DNA of 64,000 nt from Dulcicalothrix desertica PCC 7102 (GTDB lineage Bacteria > Cyanobacteriota > Cyanobacteriia > Cyanobacteriales > Nostocaceae), in NCBI RefSeq assembly GCF_003991905.1, contig NZ_RSCL01000015.1:1-64000 (forward strand), given 5' to 3'. This document shows, piece after piece, positions 2,798 through 35,871 of this stretch; position 1 is the first letter of the stretch; every line of letters begins with the position of its first letter. The notes beneath the pieces are model-generated. The model did not search any database. It was not told the origin of the DNA and saw nothing but the letters and a program-made list of their open reading frames with translations. A program made the translations under genes and the position numbers.

Positions 2798-3334
2798 CCA
2801 ACTAATATAACTATTTTTTATTGTATAAAACTTACCTTATAAATAGTATTTATCTTATATCTCAAAATTTTAATCTGTAATCGACTATTTATACTTGTAT
2901 TTTTAACATCGCAATTTAACTAAAATAGTCAAATTTTAAGAATAATTTATATTAAATATAAATCCAAAATAATAATTCAAAAATTATTGGTACAAACTCA
3001 TGCTTATAATGGTACAGTGATGGTACTAAAAAATCTTTGGAAAGGTTATATTCCCGTCGATTTTTGGTATTGTACCACGGTACCGTACCACTATTTTTAT
3101 GGTAAAAACAAGAGTTTTAGTTAGTTTCAAAAAGATGTTGAGTCATATTATTAAGCTATTATTGACAAATAATTTTATGTTAGTACCAATAATTTTTGAT
3201 TTGGTACTATATTTAATAGCTAACTTTAAGTTTATAAGTTTTAATATATACAAGTAGTAGGCAGTGGGATTCAGAAACAACCCACTGTAAAATGTATTTA
3301 GCAGTACTTAAAAACTATTACGAAATCTTTAGCA

Positions 3335-4670: not shown

Positions 4671-4822
4671 GAGATGCTTCGTACCTCAGCATGACAGGAG
4701 GAGATGCTTCGTACCTCAGTATCACAGGAGATGCTTCGTACCTCAGTATCACAGGAGATGCTTCGTACCTCAGTATCACAGGAGATGCTTCGTACCTCAG
4801 TATCACAGAGGATGCTTTGTTT
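4671..4822. repeat. Tandem repeat, 27-bp unit GGAGATGCTTCGTACCTCAGTATCACA, about 5.5 copies
   Basis: Read directly; it generates the artefactual repetitive ORFs at 4606-4873 on both strands. Confidence 0.9.
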
Positions 4823-4979
4823 TTTAGCATGATGTGGTTGGCGCCTCACAAATTTTTGTGTTACAGTGTGTAGTAAGGCAGTAATACAAAGCGATGCTAT
4901 GGTTTGGGTTCTGTATGCCCAACTGGTGCGCTCTTAAGATTTAATTGTGCGTATGCCGCATTATTGTAGCTGTCTTATC

Positions 4980-5052
4980 GTGTGATTAGCTCAGTTGGCA
5001 GAGCATCCGAAGAATCGGCTGGACGAAGGTTCGAGTCCTTTATCATACACCA
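4980..5052 (+). tRNA. tRNA-like gene with defective anticodon arm (possible tRNA pseudogene), CCA encoded
   Basis: Perfect 7-bp acceptor stem GTGTGAT/ATCATAC, D-arm GCTCAGTTGGCAGAGC, T-arm GAAGGTTCGAGTCCTTT, ACCA 3' end. Only 20 nt lie between the D and T arms, with a 4-bp stem and 4-nt loop (CCGA-AGAA-TCGG), so no normal anticodon loop. Confidence 0.4.
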
Positions 5053-5125
5053 AAAAAGTTAGCTCATTAGGTAGAGCGGTCGGCGTTTAACCGATTGGTA
5101 GTAGGTTCGATTCCTACACTTTTAC
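5053..5125 (+). tRNA. tRNA-like gene abutting the previous one; anticodon loop CGTTTAA (TTT, Lys-like) but atypical (G33, A1:A72 mismatch, no CCA)
   Basis: D-arm GCTCATTAGGTAGAGC, anticodon stem GTCGG/CCGAT, T-arm GTAGGTTCGATTCCTAC; acceptor AAAAAGT/ACTTTTA has a first-pair mismatch. Confidence 0.35.
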
Positions 5126-5547
5126 CAACCCTGTCCGGGTCAAAAGACACTACTTTGAGGAAGTAGCTCCTACAAAAATGGAAAAAGGGAGAAATCCCAA
5201 AACGGTTCGATTCCGTTATTTTACAAACTCTGTGGTGCAGGTGCGCGTTTTTGCTTGTCATTCGTGGTGAGCTTTAATGCAACAGTGAAGGCGCCTGTGC
5301 GTTTACATTTTATCTGACTTGAGTATGCCCTTCATTTGTAACATCTAAGTTCTTTACAGAATTTGGAATTAGCAAATTGAACGGTATATGTGAGCGTTGT
5401 TTTCTTAACTGCCGAAAGGTACTTGAGTGACAATAATCTTAATCCAGTAGATAAATATGTATTTGTCCGCACCTTAACTGTAGACACTTGCACTTGCGGA
5501 GTTTATAATTATTTTTCATGTAGTATATATGCTACAAGTTATAAATT

Positions 5548-9277: not shown

Positions 9278-9577
9278 TTTGTGTATCCTTTTGATTAGTT
9301 TTTGACGAGTAAAAAAACAATTGCTAGTAGGATAAGGGTTATCTTCTATTTACAGTTCTACCTTTAGATGGGATTTTAATTATTCAATATTATCATTAAT
9401 TAACTTTGTGTATAAATTAGTTCTATTGTGGTAATAATAATGTTCAGTAGCGGAGCCACCTGGTTAAATTATCCAATACCTGAAGCTTTGATGATTTTGG
9501 TGATGTTAGGGGTAGGCGCCGTTTGCTGGATACGTAGGAATTTCTATGTCCTTTGGCTCGAATAGGCAAGACTGGCA

Positions 9578-9603
9578 ACGGATGTAACGGATGTAACGGA
9601 TAA
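9578..9603. repeat. Short tandem repeat (CGGATGTAA)n
   Basis: Read directly. Confidence 0.8.
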
Positions 9604-9653
9604 GTACTTGGTAACAACTGCAACAAAAATTGTAAATCAGCGTCTAAGCCTCT

Positions 9654-9740
9654 AGAAACCGGGTTTCTTTGTTAAGATATTGTAATAAAAACGATGATTT
9701 GTCTGCGACAATGAATGCATAGAAAGCCGGTTTCTTTACG
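9654..9740. repeat. Dispersed element about 85 bp long with terminal GAAACCGGGTTTC palindromes (family copy 1)
   Basis: AGAAACCGGGTTTCTTTG...TGTAATAAAAACGATGATTTG...AGAAAGCCGGTTTCTTT; homologous copies at 26918-26985, 34783-34826, 51151-51225. Confidence 0.65.
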
Positions 9741-9767
9741 TTATTATATGCACGAGAGTTATTTAAG

Positions 9768-10253
9768 ATGTTGAAGTTATTAAGTAATGATAAAGACTTT
9801 AGATATTGGTTCGTAAAATCAAAACTAGTAGGAGTCAGCTTTTTTGTATCTATTATTTTAGGTGTAATTTTATCACAACCTGCAAGTGCTTGTAGACCCG
9901 CACCAGGAAGCACGCCCGCTACTTTAGCGGCAAGAGTGGATAATACTCCTTATGTTTTTGATGGTACTGTCATTCGAGTGAATGAAGATAAAGTGACAGT
10001 TCGAGTCAAGCGGTATTTTAAGGGTAAAGGTTCAAGAATTGTTACCTTAACGGGGTTTAATAGAACTTCTTGCGATAATTTTATTACTACTACTGGCACC
10101 CGCTATTTATTTTTTGCTAAACCCGCAGAAAAAAAGATTTTGACTGCGGTTTATGATGGCGCCTTTGGTTCGGTGCGTGAGTGGTCTAATGATACTGAAA
10201 GTGAGTTAAGGCAGTTGGGTTTACTAGGTAAAAGTAAAAAACGTACATTGTAG
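9768..10253 (+). CDS. Hypothetical secreted/membrane-anchored protein
   Basis: 161 aa; N-terminal hydrophobic segment then a Cys-containing soluble domain; no recognizable family. Confidence 0.3.
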   Translation: MLKLLSNDKDFRYWFVKSKLVGVSFFVSIILGVILSQPASACRPAPGSTPATLAARVDNTPYVFDGTVIRVNEDKVTVRVKRYFKGKGSRIVTLTGFNRTSCDNFITTTGTRYLFFAKPAEKKILTAVYDGAFGSVREWSNDTESELRQLGLLGKSKKRTL

Positions 10254-10277: not shown

Positions 10278-11166
10278 GTGGATATAATTTTTTGTTGAAT
10301 ATAACCAGGTAGCGCAAACGCTGCTTGATGAATATCTGGGTTGTAGTAGCGCAGGTTATGTAATGCCGTAAATTGCGTTGAAGAGTCACGGTCAAAATTA
10401 TTAACTGGGTGTTGTCCTTGTTTAGAGCAATATGTCAAACTCCACATTCCCGTGGGGTACATGGGTATAAATACTAAATACGGATGTACAAAGTCGGCGC
10501 CGAAAACTTCTTTAAGACATTTATTTAAGTCTACGAATGCGTCGGGATGGAATAGTGGTGACTCGCTCTGTATTGTTACTACTCCACCTGGACGCAAGCA
10601 ACGGTATACGTCTTCGTAAAATGATTTGCTGAAAAGTCCTTCTGATGGGCCTACTGGGTCGGAGGAGTCGATAATGACTAAATCATAAGATGCATTGGCG
10701 GCATCTTTGACAAATTTAATGCCATCGTCGATGAGCAAATTCAATTTGGGATGTTCTAGGGCTGATGATATTGTGGGTAAAAATTGCTTTGATGCGCGTA
10801 CTACAACTTCGTCAATTTCTACCATTGTGACTTTTTCGATACCTGGATGACGCATTAGTTCCCGAATTGTACCACCATCTCCGGCGCCGATTACTAATAC
10901 ATCTTTGATACTGGAATTAGCAAACATTGGTACATGAACAATCATCTCATGATAGTTTGCTTCATCTGATTCGGTACACATAACCATGCGGTCAATAGTC
11001 AGCATTTTCCCTCGGTCGTATGTATCAAATACTTCTACTACTTGAAATGGTGATTGCTCTTTAAAAAGACATTCTCCTTTGACGCGAATTGACAGCGCGC
11101 TTTTATTGTTATGGTCTATTACCCATTCGTCTTGGTTAAATTCTGCTCCGGTCTCAGGTGTAGTCA
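10274..11166 (-). CDS. speE: Spermidine synthase (polyamine aminopropyltransferase)
   Basis: VIGAGDGGTIRELMRH and DLVIIDSSDPVGP motifs; the track start at 11197 is a TTG, the first ATG (MTTPETG) is at 11166. Confidence 0.85.
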
Positions 11167-11296
11167 TTTTAAAGGGCGCCCTTATCAAATAAATCAAATG
11201 CCAGTGGATTAGTATACATCAAGAAGGCGCCTCTACATATATACCTATTTTTTGCTAATATTTAAGATTCGAGAGATAAGAACACGGATTTGAGAT

Positions 11297-12700
11297 ATGA
11301 GCAAGGGCACGCTGTTTGATAAAGTTTGGGAATTGCACACTGTTGGTACGCTTCCATCAGGGCAAACACAATTATTTATAGGACTTCACCTTATTCACGA
11401 AGTTACTAGTCCCCAAGCTTTTGCGATGCTACGCGAACGGGGTTTGAAGGTATTATTTCCAGAACGGACTGTGGCAACGGTTGACCATATTGTTCCTACT
11501 GACAACCAAGTGCGTCCATTTGTTGATACTCTTGCTGAAGAGATGATGCAGGCGCTGGAGGATAACGCTTCATCTAATAATATTACTTTTTATAATATTG
11601 GTTCGGGCAATCAGGGAATAGTTCACGTTATTGCACCTGAACAAGGTTTGACTCAACCGGGTATGACTATTGCTTGCGGTGATAGTCATACTTCCACACA
11701 TGGCGCCTTTGGTGCTATTGCTTTTGGTATTGGGACTAGCCAAGTTCGTGATGTTCTCGCTTCGCAAACGTTGGCTTTGGCAAAACTCAAAGTTCGTAAA
11801 ATCGAAGTTAACGGCGCCTTAAAGCCAGGTGTATACGCTAAAGATATTATTTTGCATGTTATTCGCACTCTTGGTGTTAAGGGTGGGGTTGGGTATGCAT
11901 ACGAATTTGCTGGAACTACCTTTGATGCGATGAACATGGAAGAACGAATGACCGTTTGTAACATGGCTATTGAAGGTGGCGCCCGTTGTGGTTATGTTAA
12001 TCCTGATAAAATAACTTACGATTATCTCAAAGGACGCGACTTTGCTCCTAAAGCTCTTGACTGGGATAAAGCTGTTGCATGGTGGGACTCGATAAAAAGT
12101 GATGATAACGCTGAATATGATGATGTAGTTGTTTTTAAAGCCGAAGATATTCCTCCTACTGTCACTTGGGGAATTACACCTGGTCAAGGTATTGGAGTTG
12201 ACCAACAAGTACCAACTCCCGAACAGTTGAGCGAAGATGACCGTGTAATCGCTCAAGAAGCATATAAATATATGGATTTGGCGCCAGGTCAATCTATCGA
12301 AGGCACTAAAATAGACGTATGTTTCATTGGTAGCTGTACGAACGGACGTATTAGCGACCTTCGCGAAGCTGCAAAAATTGCGAAAGGGCGCCAAGTTGCT
12401 TCTGGAATAAAAGCCTTTGTTGTTCCAGGTTCTGAACGAGTCAAAAAACAAGCAGAAGAAGAAGGACTCGATAAAATTTTTGTGGAAGCGGGTTTTGAAT
12501 GGCGTGAAGCTGGATGTTCAATGTGTCTAGCAATGAACCCCGATAAATTAGAAGGACGACAAATAAGTGCTTCTTCTTCTAACCGTAACTTTAAAGGGCG
12601 CCAGGGTTCTGCAAGTGGTCGCACTTTATTAATGAGTCCCGCAATGGTTGCTGCTGCTGCTGTTAAAGGTGAGGTCTTTGATGTGCGTGAGTTAGTGTAG
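11297..12700 (+). CDS. leuC: 3-isopropylmalate dehydratase large subunit
   Basis: 467 aa aconitase-family protein; Fe-S ligands region [11 protein letters not shown] and [14 protein letters not shown] motif. Confidence 0.92.
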
Positions 12701-15081: not shown

Positions 15082-15810
15082 ATGAGTAGTAGCAGCAACT
15101 TCCGCGAAGCCATTAACCAGGCGAAAAATCAAGCCCTGGTTGGTCCAAACGTAATTGCTAACGCCCTTCCTTTTGTGGGTGGGGGTCTTGTGTTGACTGC
15201 TGTCGGCACATATGGTGGTTTGTTTGTGCGCGCGAATAACCCAGGAATCTTTTTTCCTACGTTTATTGCGGCGTTTGTCCTAGAACTGATACTTTTCTTC
15301 GTTGCCCAGAACGTTGCAGAGAAAGCGAATAATAAAGTCGCATTACCTTTATTGGCAACATATAGTCTGTTATCTGGCTATACACTTTCGGGTATTGTGG
15401 CAGTTGCCTTGGGTACCACAGGTGTAGGCATTGCAGGAATTGGGTTTGCAGCACTTGGTTGTGGAGTCACCTTTATTGGCGCCCGTCAAATTGGCTCTAA
15501 CCTCTCTGAGTCTGATGGGATGGCGCTAAGTAAAACAATTGGCTTAGGGTTAATTGCTTTACTTGTTGTGATGCTAGTCCAAGTAGTTTTCCGTATGTTT
15601 GGTGTATACACACCAGGTTGGTTAGAAATTGGAATTTCGGGTATCGGAGTATTTTTGTTCGTAGGAGCAGCAGTTGTTGACTTCTATATATTACCGCGCG
15701 CTTATCGTGATAACCAGTATTTAAGCGCTGCTTTATCAATGTACCTAACCTACATCAATTTGTTTATTTTCATTTTGCGGTTACTAATTGCAATAAATAG
15801 CCGTGATTAA
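15082..15810 (+). CDS. Bax inhibitor-1/YccA-like multi-pass membrane protein
   Basis: 242 aa, about 7 predicted TM helices; family assignment tentative. Confidence 0.45.
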   Translation: MSSSSNFREAINQAKNQALVGPNVIANALPFVGGGLVLTAVGTYGGLFVRANNPGIFFPTFIAAFVLELILFFVAQNVAEKANNKVALPLLATYSLLSGYTLSGIVAVALGTTGVGIAGIGFAALGCGVTFIGARQIGSNLSESDGMALSKTIGLGLIALLVVMLVQVVFRMFGVYTPGWLEIGISGIGVFLFVGAAVVDFYILPRAYRDNQYLSAALSMYLTYINLFIFILRLLIAINSRD

Positions 15811-16534
15811 TCTCTACCTGAATATTAATAAGGTGTTCTAGATTGATGAGATAAAATATTCAATTTTGTCCAGATTAGCTCAAGCCCGCAGCGAATACAA
15901 ATTCTAGATGCACCCTGATTAATCTTTGCCTCAGCCCCTAGTGGGTTGAGGTTTTTATTATTTATATGTAAAGATAAAAAATCAAGAAATGAAATAAATT
16001 TTAAAGCAATTTAAATTTATTTACAAATAATTTTAAATATATAAAATTTACGCTTCATTTTCAAAATCACGGAGATAACGGTTAAAGTAAATTTCGCGTG
16101 AACTCATATCTTGCACTTACATTTTTTATGTAAGATTAATTGCTCAATTTGTAACTACGCTCATACCCGCCTAGGAATAGAAGTTCCTAGGCTAATAGCC
16201 AAAGTCCATTAAAATGGACTGAATAAATAGTCATATTAAACACATACTTTTTGAAAATTAATAATTTATTTCCATAAGTGAAAGATGTGAATAAATGTAT
16301 TGATTTAAATTGTTTCTGAAGTATCAAGTTAAGTAATCCTGGCTAACTTCAAAGTTGTTAGCTGGGATTATGCAATAGCACCACTAATTTGCCCTGTAAA
16401 AAAGGCTATCGCCATTAAGGGTAGTGATGAATTTAGAATGCTTTGGTATATATTTCATATATATCTATCTTAGGAGGAATTGTTACTCAAGCTACGCTTG
16501 TATATTGTAAGAAATCACTGATTGGAGGTTTATT

Positions 16535-16783
16535 ATGAACATAGAATTTTCTCTCTGTCCTATTGGTCGTATCTACATTCCACGTCCAGGTAACTTGCCC
16601 TCTGAGTTAGAGGACTTATTGAAATTAGTTGATGTTATGCATCGTCATAGGAATGTTACTTGGTTTAGAACTAAAGACTACTCTGTGTATAGAAGGTTAT
16701 CAGAATGGTATCCTCATCCTAGGTACTCTTTTACTTCCCAGATATACTTTCATGGTATTTCTACGTCAGATAACAGGTTCTAA
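16535..16783 (+). CDS. Hypothetical small protein (82 aa)
   Basis: Strong SD (GGAGG) 8 bp upstream of the ATG; no recognizable domain. Confidence 0.35.
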   Translation: MNIEFSLCPIGRIYIPRPGNLPSELEDLLKLVDVMHRHRNVTWFRTKDYSVYRRLSEWYPHPRYSFTSQIYFHGISTSDNRF

Positions 16784-17032
16784 TTATTACCGTTAATAGG
16801 TTACAATCTATTCTACTGACCGACAATACGCCTCTACTATAAATAAGTATATTTCTCCATCCTCTTCTGCCAGGTAAAACATAAGCTCTCCTCTTCATTT
16901 TTTTGTACCTGTTCGGTCTCATTGACTAGTTCTTGGCTTATACCTTCTAAATCTTGCATATATTCTCTTAATATTCCTCCAACGGAAATACCTCTAGTTT
17001 TGTGTAACTGTCGGGTTAACTCTAAAAACCAC

Positions 17033-17782
17033 TTAGCGTCTGCTACCAGGTCTGACTCTTATTACCTGATACTTAAGAATTTCTGGGATGATAATTTTAG
17101 GGTCTTGATGCTTTGCTATAGCACTGACATGAACAACAGGTTGATAGTTGACTCTTAAACATTGTTGCCATGTGTCTACCCACTTGGCTTGTGTAATGTA
17201 ACCATGACTAAAGTACGATGGGGGCGCCATTGCTAAAATGTGTAGGTGTGGGTGTGCTGATACTCCATCTTGCCCTCTAGTTACTTCGACTGACTTTATC
17301 CAACCTTTAAAACGCCAAATTTTTAACTCTGTTAAGCGTTTAAAGCTTTTGTTGATAAGATTTAAGGTTGACCGCAATTCTTTAATATCGCAGTTTTTTA
17401 GAGTTAATGTTATAAACAGCCACCGATGCTTAGGGTAATCACTTATAATCTGTGGAAGGATTTTACAGATTTTTGCTTTCCACATTAGACTACGGCGCCA
17501 CTGACAAACTGGACAATGACGAACCCTACAGAAGCGCGCGTCTGTTAGCTGTAGTTGAACTGTGCCTTCATCATCGTCTAACAAGTTAAACTCTAACCAT
17601 TTAGAGCAATTTTTTACTCGCCAAGCGTAACGAGCAAAACCATCTTCTTCTGCATCAGCATAATATTCAGAGATTTTTTGCGCGCTAGCTCTGTGCTTGT
17701 CCCAAATTTTACCAGCAACAGAGACATTAGAAAGCTTAAGTTTATTTTTTGTTTTTATTATAAGTTCTGGAGATAAGTCCAT
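17033..17782 (-). CDS. rep: Rolling-circle replication initiator protein, Rep_1 (pC194/pUB110) family HUH endonuclease
   Basis: Motif I WLFITLTLKNC (FxTLT), motif II AHPHLHILA (HUH), motif III EILKYQV (catalytic Tyr), plus CxxC (RHCPVCQW) upstream. Confidence 0.65.
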   Translation of the reverse strand: MDLSPELIIKTKNKLKLSNVSVAGKIWDKHRASAQKISEYYADAEEDGFARYAWRVKNCSKWLEFNLLDDDEGTVQLQLTDARFCRVRHCPVCQWRRSLMWKAKICKILPQIISDYPKHRWLFITLTLKNCDIKELRSTLNLINKSFKRLTELKIWRFKGWIKSVEVTRGQDGVSAHPHLHILAMAPPSYFSHGYITQAKWVDTWQQCLRVNYQPVVHVSAIAKHQDPKIIIPEILKYQVIRVRPGSRR

Positions 17783-18343
17783 CTATGAGATATATATGAT
17801 TACAATATATCTTCCTCTAAAATTTACTTACTGATTGCAGTATAATTACTGAAATTTAGATTATAAATAATCTAACATTGTCTAATTAAAGGACTTTATA
17901 ATACGATAGGCGCCAATTTCCAAATTTAATGACATGAAGCACGCTTTGGTCTGTGTTATTAGTTTTGCCAGGTTGGCGTATATCGTAAGGAGGGCATTGC
18001 CCACCCCACAACCGTCCAAAACTTATGACATATACCACTAGTAATAGCACTGAGTTTTTTTCAAGATGATAAAATTTATTGTTTGCCATATTACTTTAAT
18101 TTAAGTTGATTGAAAACCAGACTGTTCACTGTAGCGATATCTGTAAATATTATTATTTTTAAAAGTATTAAATAATCGTTGCCAGTGGACAATTATATCG
18201 TTATCTTGTGAGTTACTCTTTAATTGCAAGCCGATGAGAGATTCTATATTCCCGCGACTGTAAGACGCAGAAGTTGGAGGTTGATGTCTAGAATTAGCAA
18301 GAATTTCTACAAAAGTCGGCCATGCTTTTGTGACTCTAATAAA

Positions 18344-21300
18344 TTATTGTGGTGTACCTTGATTATGGCTTATTATTAATAGCTCATAATTATCTCCATA
18401 ATTAACCATTTTTTGCCATTCGTTTTTTGTAACATGTATGTAGTGTTTGTGATACGTAATTGCCTTAGCTTCTACTCTAATATTTTCTGCACCTTCTTGA
18501 GAGTAAAGTAAATCAAAGCCACTGCCATCGCGTGCTAGAATAGTGTATTCTAAAAATTCTTCATACAAACGTCTTGCCCAAAGTTCACCTATTTGACCGT
18601 ATCTTTCCGCATTTTCCCCAGAGCTTGGGCTATCATCGTTTTGATTTGGAATAGATATTAAAGAATTAGTAACCAAATTTTCGGTAACAGAATAGTTATC
18701 AGGTTCTTCAACTAAAGAATAATCTTCAGGATTTTCAATTAAGCTCGTAGAATTATCGTTTATATAAATAACTCCTTGATTGGTAACTGGCAGAACGCAA
18801 TTAATACCAAGTTCTGCAAGTAATGAAACAACTATTTCAGTCTCTACGTTTGATTCTCCTTTTAAATTTTCTAATGCTTTATAAGTATCAATCTTTTCAG
18901 CGAGTTGATTTAGGTCATTAGCTGTGATATAAGGTTTGCGAGCAATATTAGCTATAGCATCAAGTTTATCCGGAGGAGCTTGCAAAACATCAAAAATATT
19001 ATTTCTAACTTCGTCATTGCCCAAGGTTTGCAAAACTAATTCAGCCCGACGTTGAAAGAAGTAAGTAAATAATTTTTCAAATTTTTTTTCTACTATCGAA
19101 TTAGACCAATGCAAGAGTTGTTGTACAACTTGCCTAAAATTGTTATCTTCCTTATCACCTTCATAATCACGGATGGCATTATCAATTTCATTAGCAATAT
19201 CTTCAAGTGTTACAATCTCTTTTACGTCAATTATCTGTCGTGCTTTTGTGAATGAATCGTTTTTTAATAGAAGGAAATCATTCCAATCCTGTAACCTTAG
19301 ATAACGTGCAATTTCTTTCAGTTCTTCTGGTATACCTCCATCTCTTTTTAAAGATTTTTTTAATTTAAAATCTTCGTTTTGAGTTGGAAGAATTGCATAT
19401 TTATCAAATAGTGTATAATCAATTGTATTAACGAAACATAGGAAATTATTGAGCCAACTTGTTGTTAGCTCTTTAGTTTGGGATAAAAAGCTTGCAAGAG
19501 TAGTTAACCTGCTTGCTTGTGCTACCTCTTCAACAATAGCAATTATTATCCATTTGTTACATTCCTCCCAGTCAAATTCTTCTAAATTATCTATTTCTAC
19601 TTTGTCTGGAATCGCTTGATTATAGATATCGCGCGCAAATTGCCAAATTTTTAAGCGATTTACTTCTCTACTGCCAAATTGAAAGTAGCTAATTAAGTTA
19701 TAAATAGCTCGTTTAAAGTCTTCGCTTTGGTCTCTACCTTTACCTCTAATAATATCGTTAATTTCCTTCGAGTTGTTAGCAACACGATATTGCTCTAAGC
19801 TTTTATCAAAATTTAATATATTTCGATGTAAAAGTCTACTTCTGCAAGAAGCGTTTAATCTTTCCAAAACATCTTTTAACTGTTCAGGTACGTTTTTATC
19901 AAAAAGTAATTCTGCTTTTTTACGAAAAACTCCTTGTTGGTTAGGGAAGATAGCTATTTCGCTATACAGTGATTGTTTTTTATTAGCTTTAAGAAAGTTA
20001 ATAAAACTGCTTAACCAATTAATACTTTCTAACTCTGTAGTTTTTCCTAAATTTGTGTGTAATGTAATAACATCTTGGTACTGGGCGATATCTTGAATTA
20101 AAGTATTTAAAAGCCACTCGTCATTAATATCCCAGAGAGAAGGAGTCCAATCAAATAATTTCTTAATTTCAGGCACATTATTATCTAAAGCTTTTGCAAA
20201 CTGCCAAATTTGGATTCTCTTTTCTAAGAAATCAGTTTTAATAGCTTTTTTGTTGCTTTCGCTGTTGGGAAGATAACTAGCTAATAGGTAAGCTGCATCT
20301 CTTAAATTGGGATGTGCTTTTTCTGTAAAAATGGCGCCGATACGTTCGGATATATTACGTGTGCTGTAACTTCTTTCTAGTTTAGAATTTACATTTAAGT
20401 GTAATAGTTCCTGCTTCCAATCTTCGCCAAGTATAAAAAGAACTTCTTTTAACCCATCAGGAATATTTTCATCTAATCGCAATTGAGTTCTTAATTGGAA
20501 TACTCCGTACTGGTTTGGTAAGATAGCATACTTGTTATCCAAAAGTTCAAGTTGCTTAGATTCAATAATAAAGCTGATAACCCTGTTTAACCAAGTTAGA
20601 GTATTAGTATCTCTCAAACCGAGCCGAGCAGATAAATTTTCTAAAGTTTTTTGTTCGCTAATCTCAGCGAGCAACCTTTGTAAATTATATCGCAGTTCTT
20701 TTGGATAACGATTATCAAGCCCAATAACTTCGCTCCATTCTTTTATATCCTGTCTTTGAGGTAACTTAGAAGAATGAAGGAATGCTGTAATTTCCCAAAA
20801 TTCTAAAAGATTTTTATTGTTATATTCGGGAATTAAAGCATCTTTCAACTTGATATTTACCCCCTCATTGGTACGAACAATTTTACTTTCAAGTACTTTA
20901 GCTCTAATAAAACTTTGAATATGTGATTCATACCATTCGGAATCAATATTTTTTGGTAATTCTGCCAAAGCCAATAAGTGAGGGTTTAACCAATTTTGTG
21001 CTGCGTAATCTAATAAAATACCGTAAAGTGATATGGTTTCTTCAAAAATTGCTCTATTTTTTTTACCACCAGTCTCATTTCTATCGTCAAGCAATATACT
21101 GTCTCTAGGTTCAGTTGGCTCCAATAATGGACTGTTAATTACTACCGGATACTTGAATTTAGTTTCAGAGCCAATTAAAGGGAAATCGCAAAATAGAAGT
21201 GGTGCAGAGGAATTAAGCTTAACAACAGAATATTGATTATTTATTTGTTCTAGCTGAATGGCGATACTTATCTCACCTTGTTCATCGGCTAAGTTAATGG

Positions 21301-22138
21301 TTTTTGAGCAATTTGCAATAATTATTTTTTCTATTTGGTCATCAACGTGCTTTTCTATATGCGATATTGTTATTTCTTCTAGTTTTTCGCGATTTTGAAT
21401 ATAATAAGATGTCTTTGTTGATTTTGTTTCATCTTTAACTATTACAGATTCTAGTTCAGGGATGAAAACAAGGGTATATATAATTGCATTGTGTAAATCT
21501 TCAATTCCTTTTTGAGCAACTTTAAATCCTTCTTTATTAAGCCGGTAACGAAATGATGTATCACAAGTTTGGTATAGCTGATAATCAGGAGGTAAAGTAG
21601 GACATATGTTTTTATCGTCTAGATGGCGCCGAATATCAGAAGCTTTTTTGACTGCTTCAATCATTTCTTCGATTGTTGCAGCACTTCTATCTAAATTTAA
21701 ATTAAATCGCTTATAAATTTTACATTTTGGATCTTCAAATATACTACTTAACTGAACTACTTTAGATAGTAAGTGGGTGGTCATAAAACCTGTACCAAAC
21801 TTACCAGTAGTTCTGACTTTATTACTATCGCTTTGATTTTCTGTAGGTTTATTACTATTTCTATCTTTTGTTGAAACTTGTTCAATTAAATATGTAATAT
21901 TTTTCATCAAGAACGGCTTACCGTTATGCTTGAACTCAAGATAGTCTTGATTCAAAATTATTTCTACTTTAACCTGATTATGAGCAACATCTTTAGCGTT
22001 TTGTAAAAGCTCCCAAATCCAACGCCGGGGTGATGACTCGCTACTATATAACCTACGAATACCGTCAAATAGTTTAGTTGCTGTTTGCTGTCGGTGAGCA
22101 TTTTCTAACTCGTCACGATACTCTTGTTCGTAAGTCAT
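18344..22138 (-). CDS. Large multidomain protein: N-terminal sacsin/GHKL-like ATPase, three internal repeat modules, C-terminal PD-(D/E)xK nuclease-like (DUF3883-type) domain
   Basis: 1264 aa; ELLQNAKDV and GKFGTGFMTTH motifs (Bergerat fold as in sacsin). Three paralogous modules (YAILPNQYGVFQLR...IPDGLKEVL / IAIFPNQQGVFRKK...VPEQLKDVL / YAILPTQNEDFKLK...IPEELKEIA). C-terminus GFDLLYSQEG...IRVEAK fits D...(E)xK. Confidence 0.6.
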   Translation of the reverse strand: MTYEQEYRDELENAHRQQTATKLFDGIRRLYSSESSPRRWIWELLQNAKDVAHNQVKVEIILNQDYLEFKHNGKPFLMKNITYLIEQVSTKDRNSNKPTENQSDSNKVRTTGKFGTGFMTTHLLSKVVQLSSIFEDPKCKIYKRFNLNLDRSAATIEEMIEAVKKASDIRRHLDDKNICPTLPPDYQLYQTCDTSFRYRLNKEGFKVAQKGIEDLHNAIIYTLVFIPELESVIVKDETKSTKTSYYIQNREKLEEITISHIEKHVDDQIEKIIIANCSKTINLADEQGEISIAIQLEQINNQYSVVKLNSSAPLLFCDFPLIGSETKFKYPVVINSPLLEPTEPRDSILLDDRNETGGKKNRAIFEETISLYGILLDYAAQNWLNPHLLALAELPKNIDSEWYESHIQSFIRAKVLESKIVRTNEGVNIKLKDALIPEYNNKNLLEFWEITAFLHSSKLPQRQDIKEWSEVIGLDNRYPKELRYNLQRLLAEISEQKTLENLSARLGLRDTNTLTWLNRVISFIIESKQLELLDNKYAILPNQYGVFQLRTQLRLDENIPDGLKEVLFILGEDWKQELLHLNVNSKLERSYSTRNISERIGAIFTEKAHPNLRDAAYLLASYLPNSESNKKAIKTDFLEKRIQIWQFAKALDNNVPEIKKLFDWTPSLWDINDEWLLNTLIQDIAQYQDVITLHTNLGKTTELESINWLSSFINFLKANKKQSLYSEIAIFPNQQGVFRKKAELLFDKNVPEQLKDVLERLNASCRSRLLHRNILNFDKSLEQYRVANNSKEINDIIRGKGRDQSEDFKRAIYNLISYFQFGSREVNRLKIWQFARDIYNQAIPDKVEIDNLEEFDWEECNKWIIIAIVEEVAQASRLTTLASFLSQTKELTTSWLNNFLCFVNTIDYTLFDKYAILPTQNEDFKLKKSLKRDGGIPEELKEIARYLRLQDWNDFLLLKNDSFTKARQIIDVKEIVTLEDIANEIDNAIRDYEGDKEDNNFRQVVQQLLHWSNSIVEKKFEKLFTYFFQRRAELVLQTLGNDEVRNNIFDVLQAPPDKLDAIANIARKPYITANDLNQLAEKIDTYKALENLKGESNVETEIVVSLLAELGINCVLPVTNQGVIYINDNSTSLIENPEDYSLVEEPDNYSVTENLVTNSLISIPNQNDDSPSSGENAERYGQIGELWARRLYEEFLEYTILARDGSGFDLLYSQEGAENIRVEAKAITYHKHYIHVTKNEWQKMVNYGDNYELLIISHNQGTPQ

Positions 22139-22578
22139 AGTATTTTACCCTGTTTATGCTAAAAGTACTGGTAATTATTTTCGCTATGCTTAGTATTCCC
22201 AGAAATATGTAGAAACTAAACCTGGGCAGAGCAACTTTATCGAAATTAATGTTATTAATGTCAATTCTTCTCTAGCTTGGTCGCGACAGTATGTTGGCAT
22301 ATATTCCTGTATAAGTTTTAACTTAAAATCATTATTCCATACAGTTAGGATACCCACGATTAGAACGAAACTAACCTTGTGATAAGAAGCGGCGCCTTTG
22401 TAGCAAGTGTATGATTTCTAAGACTTGCTTTCTATAAATGATTTAATTTCACTTACCGTTTTATGACTGTTAATCATTGCCTGTACTGCCGTTACTTTAT
22501 TCCTGGGTATTGACAACGAGCGTCCTTTCCATTCGCCGTTTTCTGAAACCTCATATGAATATGCCCAATACTAGTGTT

Positions 22579-23031
22579 CTAATTTGTTTGGGTCACGTTC
22601 ACCTTAAGAGCATCTACAGTTATGAATCTTACGCCAACAATAGGAGCGATTTCTGTTGCAACGTACTCCAGTGCCCATTCTACTAAGCAGCGACCAACTC
22701 CTTTTGCCCTTTGGTCAGCAGCTAACAAGCCTATTTTTATCGCTGGGAAAGTTTGATACTGCACGCCTTCTTGAATCAAGATTTGCTCGTCAACTTCTAG
22801 CTTATCTGCCAGTAAAGTTATATATCCAGCTAGCGCATCACCAACACGAATAATCCAACACTGGCTAATTAAAGCATTTACTTCACGTTGTACTCGTCCC
22901 TGTCGCCAGTAGGTTACAAACTCACCTCGCAAACACCTAAAACCCTGACCAGGAACATCCAAATCAGGGGTTAGCTTTTCGACATCAATCTGAGAGAAGT
23001 CAACTCCGGCAAATTTACTGCTGGCTGCCAT
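22579..23031 (-). CDS. GNAT family N-acetyltransferase, toxin-like (TacT/AtaT/KacT-type)
   Basis: About 150 aa from MAASSKF; acetyl-CoA binding region QRAKGVGRCLVEWALEY; its start ATG overlaps the stop of a small upstream ORF (ATGGCAGCCAGCAGTAA). Confidence 0.55.
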   Translation of the reverse strand: MAASSKFAGVDFSQIDVEKLTPDLDVPGQGFRCLRGEFVTYWRQGRVQREVNALISQCWIIRVGDALAGYITLLADKLEVDEQILIQEGVQYQTFPAIKIGLLAADQRAKGVGRCLVEWALEYVATEIAPIVGVRFITVDALKVNVTQTN

Positions 23032-23188
23032 TAGCTGCTTGTTTCTGACGACGACGCTCGGCAATCTTTTTTGATAAAGCAATAGCTGTTTCATTTGCTA
23101 CATAGCCACCTGACATAATCGCATGAGCTATTTTTCTAGCTTCATCACCAGTTACCCGTTGAGATACAGTACCAAGAGGATAATCCAT
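23015..23188 (-). CDS. Putative antitoxin (small RHH/DUF1778-like protein, 57 aa) translationally coupled to the GNAT toxin
   Basis: ORF MDYPLGTVSQRVTGDEARKIAHAIMSGGYVANETAIALSKKIAERRRQKQAANGSQQ found by hand on the minus strand (below the 60-aa track cutoff); 4-codon overlap with the GNAT gene. Confidence 0.4.
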   Translation of the reverse strand: MDYPLGTVSQRVTGDEARKIAHAIMSGGYVANETAIALSKKIAERRRQKQAANGSQQ

Positions 23189-23337
23189 ATAAGCTTGATA
23201 TACACTTTTTCTAGTATAACAGTTTTGTAAATGGTTATAATGCTAACAAATATAAATTTACAGGTGCCTTTAATAGTTCTAGTTTTTATAAAAGAAATGC
23301 TGAAAACCCTGTCCTTTTAAGGCAGGGATGAAAGCTG

Positions 23338-23372
23338 TATGAAGCCTTTTAAAGCTTCATATTTTTTTTTAA
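23338..23372 (+). terminator. Rho-independent terminator-like hairpin TATGAAGC-CTTTTAAA-GCTTCATA followed by T9
   Basis: Read directly; no annotated plus-strand gene upstream, which suggests an unannotated small RNA or an orphan terminator. Confidence 0.4.
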
Positions 23373-23761
23373 TTCTGTGGTAAGATTTTATAGTCAGTAC
23401 AAGACGTTAAAACCTACCCCTGGACTGAGGGAAAGTAGACGCCTGTTCGCGAAGCGTGCCGAAGGCATAAAACCTTGAGGAGACATCAGCACGCTCAATT
23501 TTGAGCAAACGTGTTGAGCCTGGGAACCCAAAATACAAGGCAAGTCCCTGAATCTGGGATACGGCACAAGATAGACTGAAATGAGCCGTGAATCTCTGCT
23601 CCTAAAGGACACCGAGAGTCAAAAGCGAGAAAAGAGTGTTTTTCATTGCTTAACTTTTCGCGCTTAATTTCTGATTTATTCGCGCTTAACTTTTTCTTGT
23701 GTTGAGGCAGGCAGGGATGCATGCTCCACAAGATTGTTAATTGTTAATTGTGATGTTGCTG

Positions 23762-25414
23762 TTAGACGTTACATGTTAGGTCGCCGGCTTTTTGGGAGAA
23801 GCGTGCGTTTTCGCGGTAGTCTACTGGGCAGTCTATTACTGCGGGTACGTCTTGGGCTAGTGCTTCTTTGAGGACGGGTATAAAGTCGGTAGCGGATGTG
23901 ACTCTGTAGCCTTTTAATCCCATGCTTTCGGCGAATTTTACGAAGTCGGGGTTGCCGAAGTGGACGAAGGATGAGCGACCTTTACCGAAGTGGTTTTCTT
24001 GTTTCCATTCGATTAGTCCGTAACCTCCGTCGTTGAATATTAAGGTTACAAATGGTGTGCCTACTCGCAGTGCGGTTTCTAGTTCTTGACAGTTCATCAT
24101 GAACCCTCCGTCTCCTGTGGCTGCGATGACTTTGCGGTTAGGATGTACTAGTTTGGCTGCTAGGGCGCCTGGTATGGCTATACCCATTGCTGCGAAGCCG
24201 TTAGATATTATACAGGTGTTGGGACTGTGGGCATGATAGTGACGGGCTATCCACATTTTGTGGGCGCCTACGTCTGATATTACGATGTCTTCTGGCCCCA
24301 TTACTTGCCGCATGTCGTAAATTAATTTTTGCGGTTTTATTGGGAAACCGTCATCGGATGCATATTGTTCGTAGTCTTCGCGGATGTTGTCACGTAGGGT
24401 GAGTGAGTAGGGTTTTGCTTTGCCGTGTCTGTCGGCTACTTTTAATATTTCGTTTAATGAGTCTGATATGTCACCAACTACTTCAACTGTTGGTATATAA
24501 CTGCTGTCTATTTCTGCTGAGTTGGCGCCTATATGTATGATGGGTATCTTACCGTTGGGATTCCATTTTTTGGGTGAGAATTCGATTAAGTCGTAACCAA
24601 TGCAAATTACTAGGTCTGTGTTATCAAAACCGCAGCTTACAAAGTCGCGTTGCTGTAACCCAACTGCCCATAATGCTAATGGATGAGTATAAGGTATTAC
24701 ACCTTTACCCATGAATGTATTGGCTGTAGGGATATTTAGTTGAGTGGCAAATTGTGTTACTGCATCACTCGCTAACGCGCGGATTGCTCCGTTTCCTACT
24801 AAAATAATTGGGTTTACTGCTTGAGATATTGCTGCTGCTGCTGCGCGGATACTAGCAAAAGAAGCAAAAGTTCTATCGGGTTTGTCGATGCGTAAGGGTT
24901 CACCTTCTACTGGCATCGCTGCGATGTTTTCGGGTAAGTCGATATGCACTGCACCAGGTTTTTCGCTTTGCGATTTTTTGAACGCTTTACGTACTAGTTC
25001 GGGTGTGATGCTTGGTCGAACTATTTGTTTACTCCATTTGGTGACTGGGGCAAACATTGCTACTAAGTCTAAGTACTGGTGCGATTCTATGTGCATTCTG
25101 TCAGTACCAACTTGTCCGGTTATTGCTACTAACGGCGCCCCATCTAAGTTAGCGTCGGCAACACCTGTCATTAAGTTGGTTGCACCGGGACCAAGTGTAG
25201 AAAGACACACGCCTGCTTTGCCGGTTAGGCGCCCGTATACGTCAGCCATGAAGGCTGCACCTTGTTCATGACGGGTAGTAATGAATTGAATCGAAGAATT
25301 TTTAAGTGCTTCGAGTACGTGTAAATTTTCTTCTCCAGGAAGACCGAATACGTACTGTACGCCTTCGTTTTCCAAACATTTTACTAATAATTCTGCTGTA
25401 TTCATTGTATTCAT
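23762..25414 (-). CDS. Thiamine-diphosphate enzyme of the acetolactate-synthase family; likely 2-oxoglutarate decarboxylase of the cyanobacterial TCA bypass
   Basis: 550 aa; TPP-binding GDGGFMMN...NDGGYG motif. Sits directly upstream of, and co-oriented with, an SSADH-like ALDH, as in the Synechococcus PCC 7002 2-OGDC/SSADH pair. Confidence 0.7.
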   Translation of the reverse strand: MNTMNTAELLVKCLENEGVQYVFGLPGEENLHVLEALKNSSIQFITTRHEQGAAFMADVYGRLTGKAGVCLSTLGPGATNLMTGVADANLDGAPLVAITGQVGTDRMHIESHQYLDLVAMFAPVTKWSKQIVRPSITPELVRKAFKKSQSEKPGAVHIDLPENIAAMPVEGEPLRIDKPDRTFASFASIRAAAAAISQAVNPIILVGNGAIRALASDAVTQFATQLNIPTANTFMGKGVIPYTHPLALWAVGLQQRDFVSCGFDNTDLVICIGYDLIEFSPKKWNPNGKIPIIHIGANSAEIDSSYIPTVEVVGDISDSLNEILKVADRHGKAKPYSLTLRDNIREDYEQYASDDGFPIKPQKLIYDMRQVMGPEDIVISDVGAHKMWIARHYHAHSPNTCIISNGFAAMGIAIPGALAAKLVHPNRKVIAATGDGGFMMNCQELETALRVGTPFVTLIFNDGGYGLIEWKQENHFGKGRSSFVHFGNPDFVKFAESMGLKGYRVTSATDFIPVLKEALAQDVPAVIDCPVDYRENARFSQKAGDLTCNV

Positions 25415-34835: not shown

Positions 34836-35813
34836 TCAAGTTGATAATTCTGGTTTACGGAAAGTGGCTTTTAGAGGGTTTAAGAACCAGAGCAGATAAG
34901 CTGCAACACCAGTTAATAAAGTCTTACCTGGTTCTTCTAACAGAATGTGCCAATGATTAATCAGAACAAGGTTAAATAGTTTGGCGGCAGTTATTCCGTC
35001 ACCTAAGCTCACTAGACGACGCACTGTATAACGCATATGATAAGCCTTTGCAGCTTTTTCACAGTGCGCGATGATATCTGGAGCATAGGAACGAGTTTTT
35101 TCTACTACTGTTTCTAATGCTTCTAGTTGTTGTAAAGCGTTTGCAGAGAGTCCGGACGTAGTTATCCGGTACAAAGTCAACACTTCTGGAATTCCTTCGT
35201 GGCGCCAGTGAGTCAGAATAGAGATTCGTAACCAACATTCGATATCTTCAGCACGACGCAAACGCTCATCAAAATAATAGTTTTCGGCGATGCCATACAC
35301 ATCGTCTTGAAACTCAATACCTTGAAATACTTCACGTCTGATTACGGCAGCTGAACCATTACCAACAGGATTACGACAAAGTACATATGATGGTGTAATG
35401 TCATAGAGTTTTCGCGGTTTCTGATAAAGTCCTGTAAGATTACCTTCTTCATTAATAAACGCGGAATAGCAAAAACTAATTCCTACAGTTGGTGAATTAT
35501 CCAAATGATTGACATGTTTTTCCAGCTTGGTGGGCAACCAGATATCATCAGCATCTAAAAAAGCTAAATAATCTCCTTGAGCATGACGAATACCTGTATT
35601 CCTAGCTCCTGGTAATCCCCTATTCGCTTGATGGATAATCTTGATTCTTGGGTCAGTAAACTGCTGACACACTTCTACGCTACGGTCTGGAGAACCATCA
35701 TCGATAATTAAAATTTCAAAATCCTTATAAGTTTGTGCTAGTACAGACTCAATCGTAGCTGCAATATATTTTTCAGCATTGTAGAGGGGAATAATTACCG
35801 ATACTTTTTTCAT
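34836..35813 (-). CDS. Glycosyltransferase family 2 (paralog 1)
   Basis: MKKVSVIIPLYNAEKYI...IIDDGSPD...DADD GT-A motifs. Confidence 0.8.
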   Translation of the reverse strand: MKKVSVIIPLYNAEKYIAATIESVLAQTYKDFEILIIDDGSPDRSVEVCQQFTDPRIKIIHQANRGLPGARNTGIRHAQGDYLAFLDADDIWLPTKLEKHVNHLDNSPTVGISFCYSAFINEEGNLTGLYQKPRKLYDITPSYVLCRNPVGNGSAAVIRREVFQGIEFQDDVYGIAENYYFDERLRRAEDIECWLRISILTHWRHEGIPEVLTLYRITTSGLSANALQQLEALETVVEKTRSYAPDIIAHCEKAAKAYHMRYTVRRLVSLGDGITAAKLFNLVLINHWHILLEEPGKTLLTGVAAYLLWFLNPLKATFRKPELST

Positions 35814-35871
35814 CTTAAGGAACCTGTGTAAACTTCTAATAGCTGCAAAAATTCGTAATTTAGTGATTAAT

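Follow-up and report, generated by a model that had tools for sequence, protein, structure and literature searches.

A chromosomal Rep_1 gene of Dulcicalothrix desertica PCC 7102 is probably a recently inactivated, origin-less copy rather than an integrated rolling-circle plasmid

The systems closest to the locus described here are the Rep_1 initiators (PF01446) of pC194/pUB110-type plasmids, whose motif layout and nick sequence are described in the literature, and the Reps of small cyanobacterial rolling-circle replicating (RCR) plasmids of the pCYLM02 and pCA2.4 type. HUH enzymes of other families, such as relaxases and the REP-associated tyrosine transposases (RAYTs), are known to persist in chromosomes. 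The latter are domesticated, single-copy and vertically inherited HUH enzymes of IS200/IS605 type; numerous dispersed REP hairpins flank them and are their substrates. Helitron and IS91/ISCR enzymes rely on a pair of catalytic tyrosines and on defined terminal sequences, with a helicase in addition in Helitrons.

The Rep of the window (the whole 64,000-nucleotide stretch analyzed here) differs from each of these. Compared with pC194/pUB110-type initiators, it is chromosomal and frameshifted, and the CTTGATA-type nick region does not exceed chance. It is related to the Reps of the small cyanobacterial plasmids, but the 25-nt motif that those plasmids carry in an inverted repeat is missing at the window and chromosomal loci, and no plasmid accessory genes are held in common. 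Unlike the RAYTs, it belongs to a different HUH family and the hairpins beside it occur once in the 64-kb window. Unlike Helitron and IS91/ISCR enzymes, it has one Tyr plus a Glu, no helicase and no detectable ends. We consider the locus to be, with better than even probability, an origin-less Rep_1 gene of a chromosome-resident kind that has been inactivated recently, and not an integrated plasmid.

The ORF at 17033-17782 (minus strand, 249 aa) matches Pfam Rep_1 in a profile search (E 3.3e-60; 204 bits against a curated cut-off of 33.2). This confirms the family proposed in the preliminary description, with the domain covering only profile positions 2-175 of 253 in the frame of the ORF. Judged from its sequence, the gene is a genuine pC194-superfamily HUH initiator gene. 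The N-terminal and catalytic part (codons 1-241, 17059-17782, minus strand) was delimited by the Pfam match and invariant residues. It encodes a zinc-finger-like CRVRHCPVC, motif 1 (FITLT), the HUH motif (HPHLHIL) and motif 3 (EILKY), and the three motifs named in the preliminary description (FITLT, HPHLHIL and EILKYQV) do occur in the stated order. FITLT, HPHLHIL and E234-I-L-K-Y238 are invariant across 26-36 homologues, and H177, H179, H181, E234 and Y238, invariant in the chromosomal Rep clade, are all kept in the window copy. Motif 3 (EILKYQVK) has a single catalytic Tyr with a Glu four residues before it, and the HUH endonuclease fold can be assigned to the window Rep_1. A conserved intragenic stretch reads TGGTTTCTAGAGTTAACCCGTCAG. 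Searches of Rep against NCBIfam and PADLOC profiles and of its sequence against the PDB returned no match, and Foldseek against the PDB returned nothing significant.

Lacking in the window copy is an uninterrupted full-length Rep_1 reading frame. Two-frame alignments with intact Reps place a one-base insertion (T on the coding strand) at 17061 (minus strand), two codons after the catalytic Tyr, which shifts the reading frame of the final 73 codons. The window reads GTAA[T]AAGAG (inserted base in brackets) where all intact homologues have GTAAAAGAG; the intact homologues all read EILKYQVKESDLVAD, and the window has GTAATAAGAG in place of their GTAAAAGAG. Each of 31 intact Reps aligns to the window in two frames, with the break between 17063 and 17058, and the frame is continuous in intact orthologues that are 96%, 84% and 82% identical. 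The out-of-frame run of the annotated ORF ends at a TAA (17033-17035). The displaced C-terminal 73 codons (ESDLVADAKWFLELTRQLHKTRGISVGG...) and stop codon lie at 16837-17058 (minus strand), and this tail by itself matches Rep_1 profile positions 177-252 in the +1 frame (E 2.1e-10). When both parts are joined, the repaired protein of 314 aa covers profile positions 2-252 of 253 (E 8.2e-77, 258.5 bits). The public annotation likewise splits Rep, into 249 aa and 70 aa. A programmed frameshift was considered and rejected: a +1 shift would be needed exactly at AUA-A, there are +1-frame stops just before, and no slippery motif is present.

The lost tail is conserved and is structured by prediction. 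In the AF2 model of an orthologue of 315 aa (P0001) residues 241-281 are confidently folded (pLDDT 83-88 for 241-280), and the homologue alignment shows D244, L245, W251, L253, Q258, G268 and G269 of the tail to be invariant. Measured against the closest relative, contig L001, Rep has a dN/dS of 0.13 over its whole length and of 0.07 within the tail, and the repaired Rep deviates at only 2 of 114 near-invariant positions; on these comparisons the lesion is recent. The preliminary description had named a disabling mutation as a finding that would overturn its reading, and the frameshift just after the catalytic Tyr is such a mutation.

The Rep clade comprises 203 genome loci. In species-representative genomes it occupies about 200 sites, almost exclusively in Nostocales; its hosts are Nostocales chromosomes and also Coleofasciculus. 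Rep is intact in 77 of the 81 sequences examined and the chromosomal clade is under strong purifying selection (dN/dS about 0.1). In a neighbor-joining tree (drawn without support values), the chromosomal Reps all fall in one clade nested within plasmid Reps. In the conserved pdxA slot, Rep divergence correlates with that of its housekeeping neighbors (pdxA, epimerase and NAD kinase) at r = 0.94, with a slope of 1.56 and an intercept near 0, from pairwise distances that are not independent of one another. A conserved "ter" site at the distal end of this slot's variable DNA was considered and discarded: no common motif is present there, and the variable DNA extends as far as the stop codon of pdxA.

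The nearest plasmid Reps are 45-56% identical and are those of pCYLM02 (EF452232), pCRI9333.08, Planktothrix PLAM_p, a Picosynechococcus 4.6-kb plasmid and pCA2.4. In PLSDB, every plasmid Rep is below 60% identity. The Nostocales plasmid pCYLM02 carries a Rep_1 gene (PMC6933252), and single-stranded DNA intermediates have been shown for pCA2.4 (Yang & McFadden, 1993, as cited in PMC6066503). No plasmid backbone genes were identified at the window locus, and the accessory ORFs o105, o161 and the ~127-aa family were not found on the free plasmids. Apparent "Rep fragments" downstream of Rep, suggested by ORF clustering, were set aside as a false link to the unrelated ~127-aa family. Our literature search found no account of a persistent chromosomal Rep_1 in cyanobacteria.

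Rep lies in an accessory slot (15976-23740) that was delimited by homology breaks and variable contents and extends from the Bax1-I gene (ending at 15810) to the gene for the acetolactate synthase large subunit (23762-25414). Homology to Calothrix HK-06 ends at 15975 and resumes at 23762. The G+C content is 32-39% inside the slot versus 43-44% in the flanking genes, and the housekeeping genes reported for the flanks, leuC/leuD and speE, are indeed there. A tRNA or other classic integration target was considered and set aside, no tRNA being present within 10 kb. Rep occupies the same acetolactate synthase/Bax1-I slot in Calothrix HK-06, whose copy is intact, in NIES-4105 and on the L001 contig. 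The cargo varies: Tiamat in the window and L001, polysaccharide genes (Wzt, GT2, DegT and methyltransferase) in NIES-4105, nothing extra in HK-06, and HicAB without Rep in locus L103. An ORF of 171 aa with no known domain (22579-23094, minus strand) is slot content shared with NIES-4105 and absent in HK-06. The synonymous divergence of Rep from HK-06 (dS 0.92) is far above that of the wider flanks (0.09-0.3), and thus the Rep segment was exchanged horizontally in Calothrix and is not strictly vertical. A recent horizontal arrival is not indicated, given the slot shared by 3 Calothrix genomes and L001, plasmid Reps below 60% identity and co-divergence in the pdxA slot, with the caveat of recombinational exchange in the Calothrix segment.

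The "giant gene" of the preliminary description, at 18344-22138 (minus strand), matches TmtA of PADLOC (E 1.5e-182). We take it to be Tiamat, a putative anti-phage defense gene here, with the name and the defense role as given in the PADLOC library and, reportedly, by Millman et al. 2022. It shares the ATPase and the nuclease-like NOV_C domain of this single-gene system, with a sacsin-like ATPase N-terminus (NCBIfam P_loop_sacsin, E 2.7e-18) and a NOV_C C-terminus (Pfam, E 7e-9). The orthologue in L001 is 87% identical, and the window protein ends 81 codons before it. The former C-terminal tail (18101-18343, minus strand) follows a TAA in the window (18344-18346) where L001 has GAA; the lesion being a substitution, this truncation is unlikely to be an assembly artefact. 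Mobilization of tmtA by Rep had also been suggested. No evidence in its favor was found, and only L001 pairs Tiamat with Rep among 78 other Rep loci.

Directly before the gene, the Rep leader (17783-17867, minus strand) is conserved in L001 and two further loci (L003 and L005). A promoter scan identified promoter-like TTTATA (17867-17862) and TATACT (17844-17839) boxes, the latter being the predicted -10. An inverted repeat, AGATATAT/ATATATCT, forms a hairpin at 17788-17812 directly before the ATG, and in L001 this hairpin differs by one compensatory pair (G>A / C>T).

On the other side of Rep, the stretch 15811-16534 is AT-rich as previously described (30% G+C versus 37% for the window). At the left edge of the variable slot is an intrinsic terminator of the Bax1-I gene (15928-15962, plus strand), found by a terminator scan and conserved in HK-06, NIES-4105 and L001. 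It overlaps a sub-threshold NsiR1-like match (Rfam, 30.2 bits versus a gathering score of 39), and apart from this weak match the hairpin region has no Rfam matches. Inverted-repeat and folding analyses of the AT-rich spacer (15976-16314) revealed two hairpins and several AT-only palindromes. The two adjacent "perfect palindromes" of the preliminary description exist as adjacent hairpins, but they are stem-loops: hairpin 1 (16169-16192) has 9-bp arms and a 6-nt loop, and hairpin 2 (16203-16220) has 8-bp arms and a 2-nt loop. The spacer, which contains several short hairpins, folds better than shuffled sequences (z about -3.6 on both strands). It is 87% identical in L001, in which two uncompensated changes disrupt hairpin 1 and hairpin 2 retains its stem, and no alignable counterpart was found in Calothrix HK-06 or NIES-4105. 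The two palindromes, put forward as a candidate single-strand origin, are not conserved as structures. RAYT-like upkeep of dispersed hairpins by Rep was likewise discarded, each palindrome being present a single time in the 64 kb. Dispersed repeats of other kinds (e.g., ACGGGCAGGGATGCCC...) occur in the window and are unrelated to the two palindromes.

Between spacer and Rep is a short, possibly truncated ORF, orf82 (16535-16783, plus strand). It is a relative of a family of ~105-aa ORFs (BLASTP 30% identity, E 3e-8; tblastn E 4.6e-5), whose members, by neighbor clustering, face Rep in convergent orientation at 19 further loci. The orf82 gene is inside a 460-bp segment (16315-16775) that is absent from L001.

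The preliminary description also pointed to a pC194-like nick core near 18200. The sequence TTATCTTG is present at 18201-18208, but it is at chance frequency (5 occurrences in the window versus 3.9 expected) and within the former coding tail of tmtA, where it represents codons Q-D-N on the minus strand; L001 has TTCTCTTG instead. Allowing up to 3 mismatches, the 14-nt pC194 nick consensus has 11 matches in the window versus 14.3 expected. A CTTGATA at 16322-16328 (minus strand) was rejected as a nick site, since across 78 loci the only clustering of this motif is within the coding sequence of o161, and elsewhere it is at background.

A different element characterizes the free plasmids. Seven of them, from 4 orders, carry the 25-mer CTTCACTTGAATTATGAGGGATAAC with 0-2 mismatches inside the inverted repeat GGGATAACGG/CCGTTATCCC, about 150 nt upstream of rep. 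This 25-mer in a hairpin is a strong candidate origin for pCYLM02/pCRI9333.08-type plasmids and could help in building cyanobacterial vectors. It is absent near chromosomal Reps (80 loci, up to 5 mismatches), its best match in the window has 7 mismatches, and a profile search for the plasmid origin motif at the window and chromosomal loci gave nothing significant. With the pC194 consensus at chance and the plasmid 25-mer and hairpin absent, no double-strand origin of a functional RCR replicon is detectable. Many chromosomal Reps are preceded by a short core, ACTGAGG, that is similar to a portion of the pCA2.4 element. This core falls on a -10-like box, where the window reads ACTGCAATC. The chromosomal Rep clade could use a nick site that differs from that of the plasmids and that these searches would not have recognized.

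Several other explanations deserve weighing. Only one assembly holds this exact sequence, so a consensus error at 17061 is possible. If the frameshift were an assembly error, Rep would be intact in the organism, an origin-less chromosomal gene kept by selection and acting as intact clade members do. The otherwise undecayed gene (2 of 114 near-invariant positions changed, dN/dS about 0.1 including the tail) and the single assembly are consistent with this, but we consider it unlikely: the T is inserted inside a run of A (AAAA to AATAA), unlike the common type of error in homopolymer length, the adjoining tmtA in the same island has a separate nonsense substitution, and three other clade members are genuinely truncated a few codons further on. 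It is highly improbable that the 249-aa protein is still an active nickase, either because it can do without the 73-residue tail or because the downstream ORF of 70 aa provides that tail in trans. The three catalytic motifs are kept, and several other clade members (P0075, P0076, P0108 and L082) that end at residues 253-272 are annotated as proteins; however, the stretch 241-281 has a predicted fold and includes invariant residues, the Pfam domain spans the lost residues, and the tail is under strong selection in relatives (dN/dS 0.07-0.13).

Rep could also be the engine of an IS91/Helitron-like rolling-circle island, nicking upstream and replicating through adjacent DNA so that imprecise termination captures cargo such as Tiamat. 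We regard this as quite unlikely. No repeated ends or ori/ter-like sites were found at the cargo boundaries and the variable DNA extends right to the adjoining coding sequences. Rep has one catalytic Tyr versus two in the IS91/Helitron enzymes, the pdxA-slot Rep co-diverges with its host instead of moving, Tiamat adjoins Rep at no other Rep locus except L001, and in L103 this slot holds HicAB but lacks Rep. The preliminary description favored an integrated small RCR plasmid or satellite with working double-strand and single-strand origins that could become episomal. In its favor, the Rep_1 gene lies in a non-housekeeping stretch that is rich in hairpins and low in G+C, and Nostocales do harbor small free plasmids whose Reps are related. 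Set against it are the frameshifted Rep, the lack of a plasmid-type origin in 25-mer and profile searches, the chance-level TTATCTTG in ex-coding DNA, the non-conserved hairpin 1, the lack of plasmid backbone genes, the same slot occupied in three species, purifying selection on the clade and the identity of all PLSDB plasmid Reps below 60%. We thus consider an integrated plasmid extremely unlikely. One observation, the better-than-chance folding of the AT-rich spacer, does not sit well with the chromosomal, origin-less gene that we favor. Because Rep is here a frameshifted copy of an old chromosome-resident family without a detectable origin, the locus does not represent a plasmid that is active or newly integrated.

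In the tree, the chromosomal Rep clade branches from within the small cyanobacterial RCR plasmids, and it lacks their shared origin motif and hairpin. The intact protein would still be a putative sequence-specific nick-and-join enzyme, retained for a chromosomal function that could be the upkeep or turnover of adjoining DNA, or a host role. This function would just have been lost in the window strain, and because of that loss no rolling-circle replication, excision or mobilization of neighbors is expected from this copy. More tentatively, the Nostocales-wide clade may represent an HUH nickase domesticated from a small RCR plasmid, its origin lost, and retained by selection, over times longer than those of a genus, for a job in the chromosome that the window strain would just have lost. 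Candidate jobs are chromosomal nicking for the turnover or capture of accessory genes, or the priming of DnaA-independent DNA synthesis.

The locus should be left out of any tally of integrated RCR plasmids with potential mobility, and the adjoining Tiamat is not evidently mobilized by it. The role of the Rep clade is experimentally approachable because tractable Nostoc strains should carry the pdxA-slot copy. Of wider interest is that a plasmid-type initiator is intact in Nostocales chromosomes, at a dN/dS of about 0.1, without the origin of its plasmid relatives.

[quoted passage not shown] The fold is, as expected, that of an HUH endonuclease. In the window sequence the gene is split. The match of the ORF ends at profile position 175 of 253, and the remainder (17058-16837, minus strand) lies in the +1 frame and by itself matches positions 177-252 (E 2.1e-10). 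Fused, the two parts form a 314-aa protein that covers positions 2-252 of the 253 in the Pfam profile (E 8.2e-77). Every full-length homologue found in the protein collection (e.g., P0001, the intact orthologue, 315 aa, 96% identical, and P0002 of Calothrix sp. HK-06, 82% identical) carries EILKYQVKESDLVAD. The window has GTAATAAGAG in place of the GTAAAAGAG of these homologues, and thus one extra base at 17061. Each of 31 intact Reps aligned to the window in two frames, with the break between 17063 and 17058, and a public annotation (GCA_007830875.1; VLKB01000010.1, 2.63 Mb) likewise splits the gene, into ORFs of 249 and 70 aa. A programmed frameshift is unlikely, because two +1-frame stops occur right before the point at which homology resumes and a slippery site is absent.

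As to the replication origins suggested earlier, the stretch 15811-16534 is AT-rich as described (30% G+C versus 37% for the window), and two adjoining structures lie within it (16169-16192, with 9-bp arms, and 16203-16220, with 8-bp arms), but these are stem-loops with 6-nt and 2-nt loops, respectively, rather than perfect palindromes. They had been read as a candidate single-strand origin. In L001, the contig of the closest relative, hairpin 1 has two changes within one arm, neither compensated, and hairpin 2 keeps its stem with no covariation seen. The AT-rich spacer forms several short hairpins and folds better than shuffled sequences (z about -3.6), to the same degree on either strand, and no alignable counterpart of it was found in Calothrix sp. 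HK-06 or Calothrix NIES-4105. The sequence TTATCTTG, likened to the pC194 nick core, does occur at 18201. However, it is found five times in the window (3.9 expected), and the copy at 18201 is the reverse of Q-D-N codons in the former C-terminal tail of the Tiamat anti-phage gene tmtA and is replaced by TTCTCTTG in L001. With up to 3 mismatches allowed, the 14-nt pC194/pUB110 consensus has 11 matches in the window, versus 14.3 expected.

Close Rep homologues (55-58% identical) were found on several ~4 kb contigs. The 15 contigs bearing the homologue P0102 are circular permutations of a single molecule, and terminal k-mer overlaps indicate that L087, L092, L095 and L096 are circles. No plasmid in PLSDB encodes a Rep more than 60% identical, the closest being those of Crinalium pCRI9333.08 (55.8%), pCYLM02 (54.9%), Planktothrix PLAM_p (53.2%), a Picosynechococcus 4.6-kb plasmid (50.8%) and pCA2.4 (44.7%). 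We identified CTTCACTTGAATTATGAGGGATAAC, with 0-2 mismatches, in 7 small cyanobacterial plasmids from four orders (L087 1536-1560; L095 1530; L096 1494; L097 3290; L098 1120; L099 991; L100 4418). It shares its strand with rep and is usually ~150 nt upstream of the gene, within the inverted repeat GGGATAACGG/CCGTTATCCC, and is a strong candidate, from its conservation, for the double-strand origin of this plasmid group. Degenerate versions are present in pCA2.4 and a Calothrix NIES-4101 plasmid, and the AGGGATAACGGGC inverted repeat was already noted by the authors of pCYLM02 (PMC6933252). Unlike these free plasmids, the window and 80 chromosomal Rep loci lack the element. The best match in the window has 7 mismatches, and none with 5 or fewer was found near the 80 chromosomal Reps, the sole 4-mismatch match being on the opposite strand, 6 kb from the Rep of L049. 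An nhmmer profile of the 95-nt plasmid origin region gave nothing significant. Many chromosomal Reps are preceded by a short core, ACTGAGG, that is similar to part of the element in pCA2.4 and coincides with a -10-like hexamer; its window equivalent, TATACTGCAATC, is scored as a promoter -10.

Scanning a single genome for each species recovered 203 Rep loci, the best-scoring 80 of which were examined closely. These are almost all from Nostocales and Coleofasciculus, and many are on megabase chromosomes. Counting the window, 77 of 81 Rep sequences are intact and three are truncated, with that of the window frameshifted. At ~40 loci (e.g., L015, L021 and L038, with Rep at 10001) the gene occupies one conserved slot in the order RNase D-like, rhodanese, (response regulator), Rep, (small ORFs), pdxA, epimerase, NAD kinase. 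The taxa include Nostoc, Trichormus, Nodularia, Tolypothrix, Scytonema, Fischerella, Stigonema and even Coleofasciculus H7-2. The protein distance between Reps rises in step with the averaged distance of pdxA, epimerase and NAD kinase (Pearson r 0.94, slope 1.56, intercept ~0; 31 conserved-slot loci, with distance pairs that are not independent), and Rep dN/dS is 0.07-0.31 (13 pairs). In a neighbor-joining tree rooted on pCA2.4 (distance-based, without support values) the chromosomal Reps form one clade inside the plasmid Reps. These comparisons suggest that a plasmid rep was captured once, long ago, and has since been inherited mostly vertically under purifying selection, relocating at times. 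A literature search of limited coverage turned up no description of Rep_1 genes on cyanobacterial chromosomes.

Three families of small ORFs (~105, ~160 and ~110-130 aa) accompany the chromosomal Reps, 0.9-2 kb downstream (L015, L012, L030 and others) or ~1 kb upstream (Coleofasciculus L077-L080); none of the three was found on the free plasmids. The first two are convergent to Rep at many loci. The ~160-aa family has weak cupin/2OG-oxygenase matches, and the ~110-130-aa family ('...YNWYMAVEPESGDYFID...') has no Pfam match. The orf82 of the window (16535-16783) is shorter than members of the ~105-aa family, to which it is weakly related (E 3e-8), and lies within a 460-bp segment absent from L001.

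In four independent broken Reps, homology ends within ~25 nt of codons 250-261 (L081 ~10749, exact against its 95.6% identical relative L038; L082 ~10735; L084 ~10740; an old fragment in L005 (NIES-4105) ~3089; window equivalent ~17000-17030). The DNA of this region, TGGTTTCTAGAGTTAACCCG (GAGTTAAC), is nearly invariant, synonymous sites included, and nowhere else in the 3' half of rep is the nucleotide sequence as well conserved. The breaks may mark a secondary nick site or recombination hot spot, or their clustering may reflect ascertainment bias, as only best-scoring loci were compared. Decayed fragments also lie beside intact Reps. In NIES-4105, residues 203-261 (2913-3089, the catalytic Tyr codon being a stop there) are 7 kb upstream and residues 10-42 (10001-10099) 76 bp upstream; in Nostoc L030, L033, L049 and L075 (~9560-9860), residues ~90-190 are 145 bp upstream. 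Such remnants suggest repeated arrival or duplication at the same site.

In the window, HK-06 (L003) and NIES-4105, Rep is located between the genes for Bax1-I and the acetolactate synthase large subunit. The outer flanks carry leuD, leuC and speE on one side, the housekeeping genes noted previously, and aldehyde dehydrogenase and FHA-GAF-cyclase genes on the other. This slot serves as a common insertion place for accessory genes. It holds tmtA in the window and L001 (the latter with a peptidase S10 gene in addition), Wzt, GT2, DegT and methyltransferase genes together with two old remnants of Rep in NIES-4105, and nothing in HK-06 beyond Rep and 1.3 kb of non-coding DNA. In the more distantly related L103, whose flanking genes are the same, a HicB/HicA toxin-antitoxin pair (10965-11371) was found and neither Rep nor a remnant of it. 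Between the window and HK-06, dS is 0.09-0.3 for flanking genes a few kb away, versus 0.67 for Bax1-I (15082-15810) and 0.92 for Rep; the HK-06 Rep is nearer to that of NIES-4105 (dS 0.47). Thus, the history of the Rep-Bax1-I segment reaches further back than that of the chromosome around it, which fits recombination of the slot and adjoining Bax1-I from a more distant lineage, seemingly via homologous recombination in the flanks.

Directly before the Rep start codon, an 8-bp hairpin (AGATATAT/ATATATCT; 17788-17812, minus strand) is kept in all four Calothrix-type loci, with one compensatory pair in L001 (G>A with C>T), and may act in translation or autoregulation. An Rfam match below threshold to NsiR1, a nitrogen stress-induced sRNA of Nostocales, overlaps the Bax1-I terminator (15902-15959, plus strand; 30.2 bits versus a gathering score of 39, E 0.008). 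A ~29-nt dispersed repeat, ACGGGCAGGGATGCCCGTTCCACAAGAGT, occurs at 790, 12747, 23707 and 56841, the copy at 23707-23735 lying at the right edge of the Rep/Tiamat slot. Elsewhere, five to six tandem 27-nt repeats (AGGAGATGCTTCGTACCTCAGTATCAC; 4672-4833 and 4980-5126) lie directly upstream of an unusual tRNA call, with an undetermined anticodon, that abuts a tRNA-Lys. A run of five to six paralogous genes of ~310-330 aa (35600-39900, minus strand), with conserved blocks at ~1-kb spacing, looks like a putative tandem glycosyltransferase-type array.

The segment lost by the frameshift is one that matters, as judged from the AlphaFold model of P0001 (mean pLDDT 76). Residues 241-281 are predicted to fold as helix-helix-strand-helix (pLDDT 83-88), with 282-315 disordered, and the invariant residues D244, L245, W251, L253, Q258, G268 and G269 lie within the lost part. 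It is therefore improbable that the truncated 249-aa protein is still active. The lesion appears to be either very young or an error: between the window and L001, dN/dS is 0.13 for the whole gene and 0.07 for the out-of-frame tail, and the repaired protein, like intact relatives, deviates from the clade at just 2 of 114 near-invariant positions. An assembly error in a gene that is intact in the organism is unlikely, though the least so of the alternatives, and the exact window sequence is present in one assembly only. Against an error, the change is not a homopolymer length error, and the adjacent tmtA (18344-22138, minus strand) has an independent nonsense codon, TAA where the 87% identical L001 orthologue has GAA. 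The stop and the 81 codons that follow it occupy 18101-18346 (minus strand), and these codons are still in frame and homologous to L001, so that tmtA seems to carry a recent nonsense mutation. On these two grounds we lean, short of proof, toward a true mutation in rep, and both neighbors in the slot would then have acquired late truncating lesions.

A rolling-circle transposon-like island that captures cargo is another reading, which we consider rather improbable. A functional integrated plasmid, as suggested earlier, is very improbable. The reading that we moderately favor is of a frameshifted Rep_1 gene of the chromosome-resident clade, lacking an origin of the plasmid type and located next to a Tiamat gene in a variable accessory slot. 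Because the catalytic residues are invariant and under selection, the intact protein of this clade would still be a site-specific nick-and-join enzyme, an activity that has probably just been lost in this strain.
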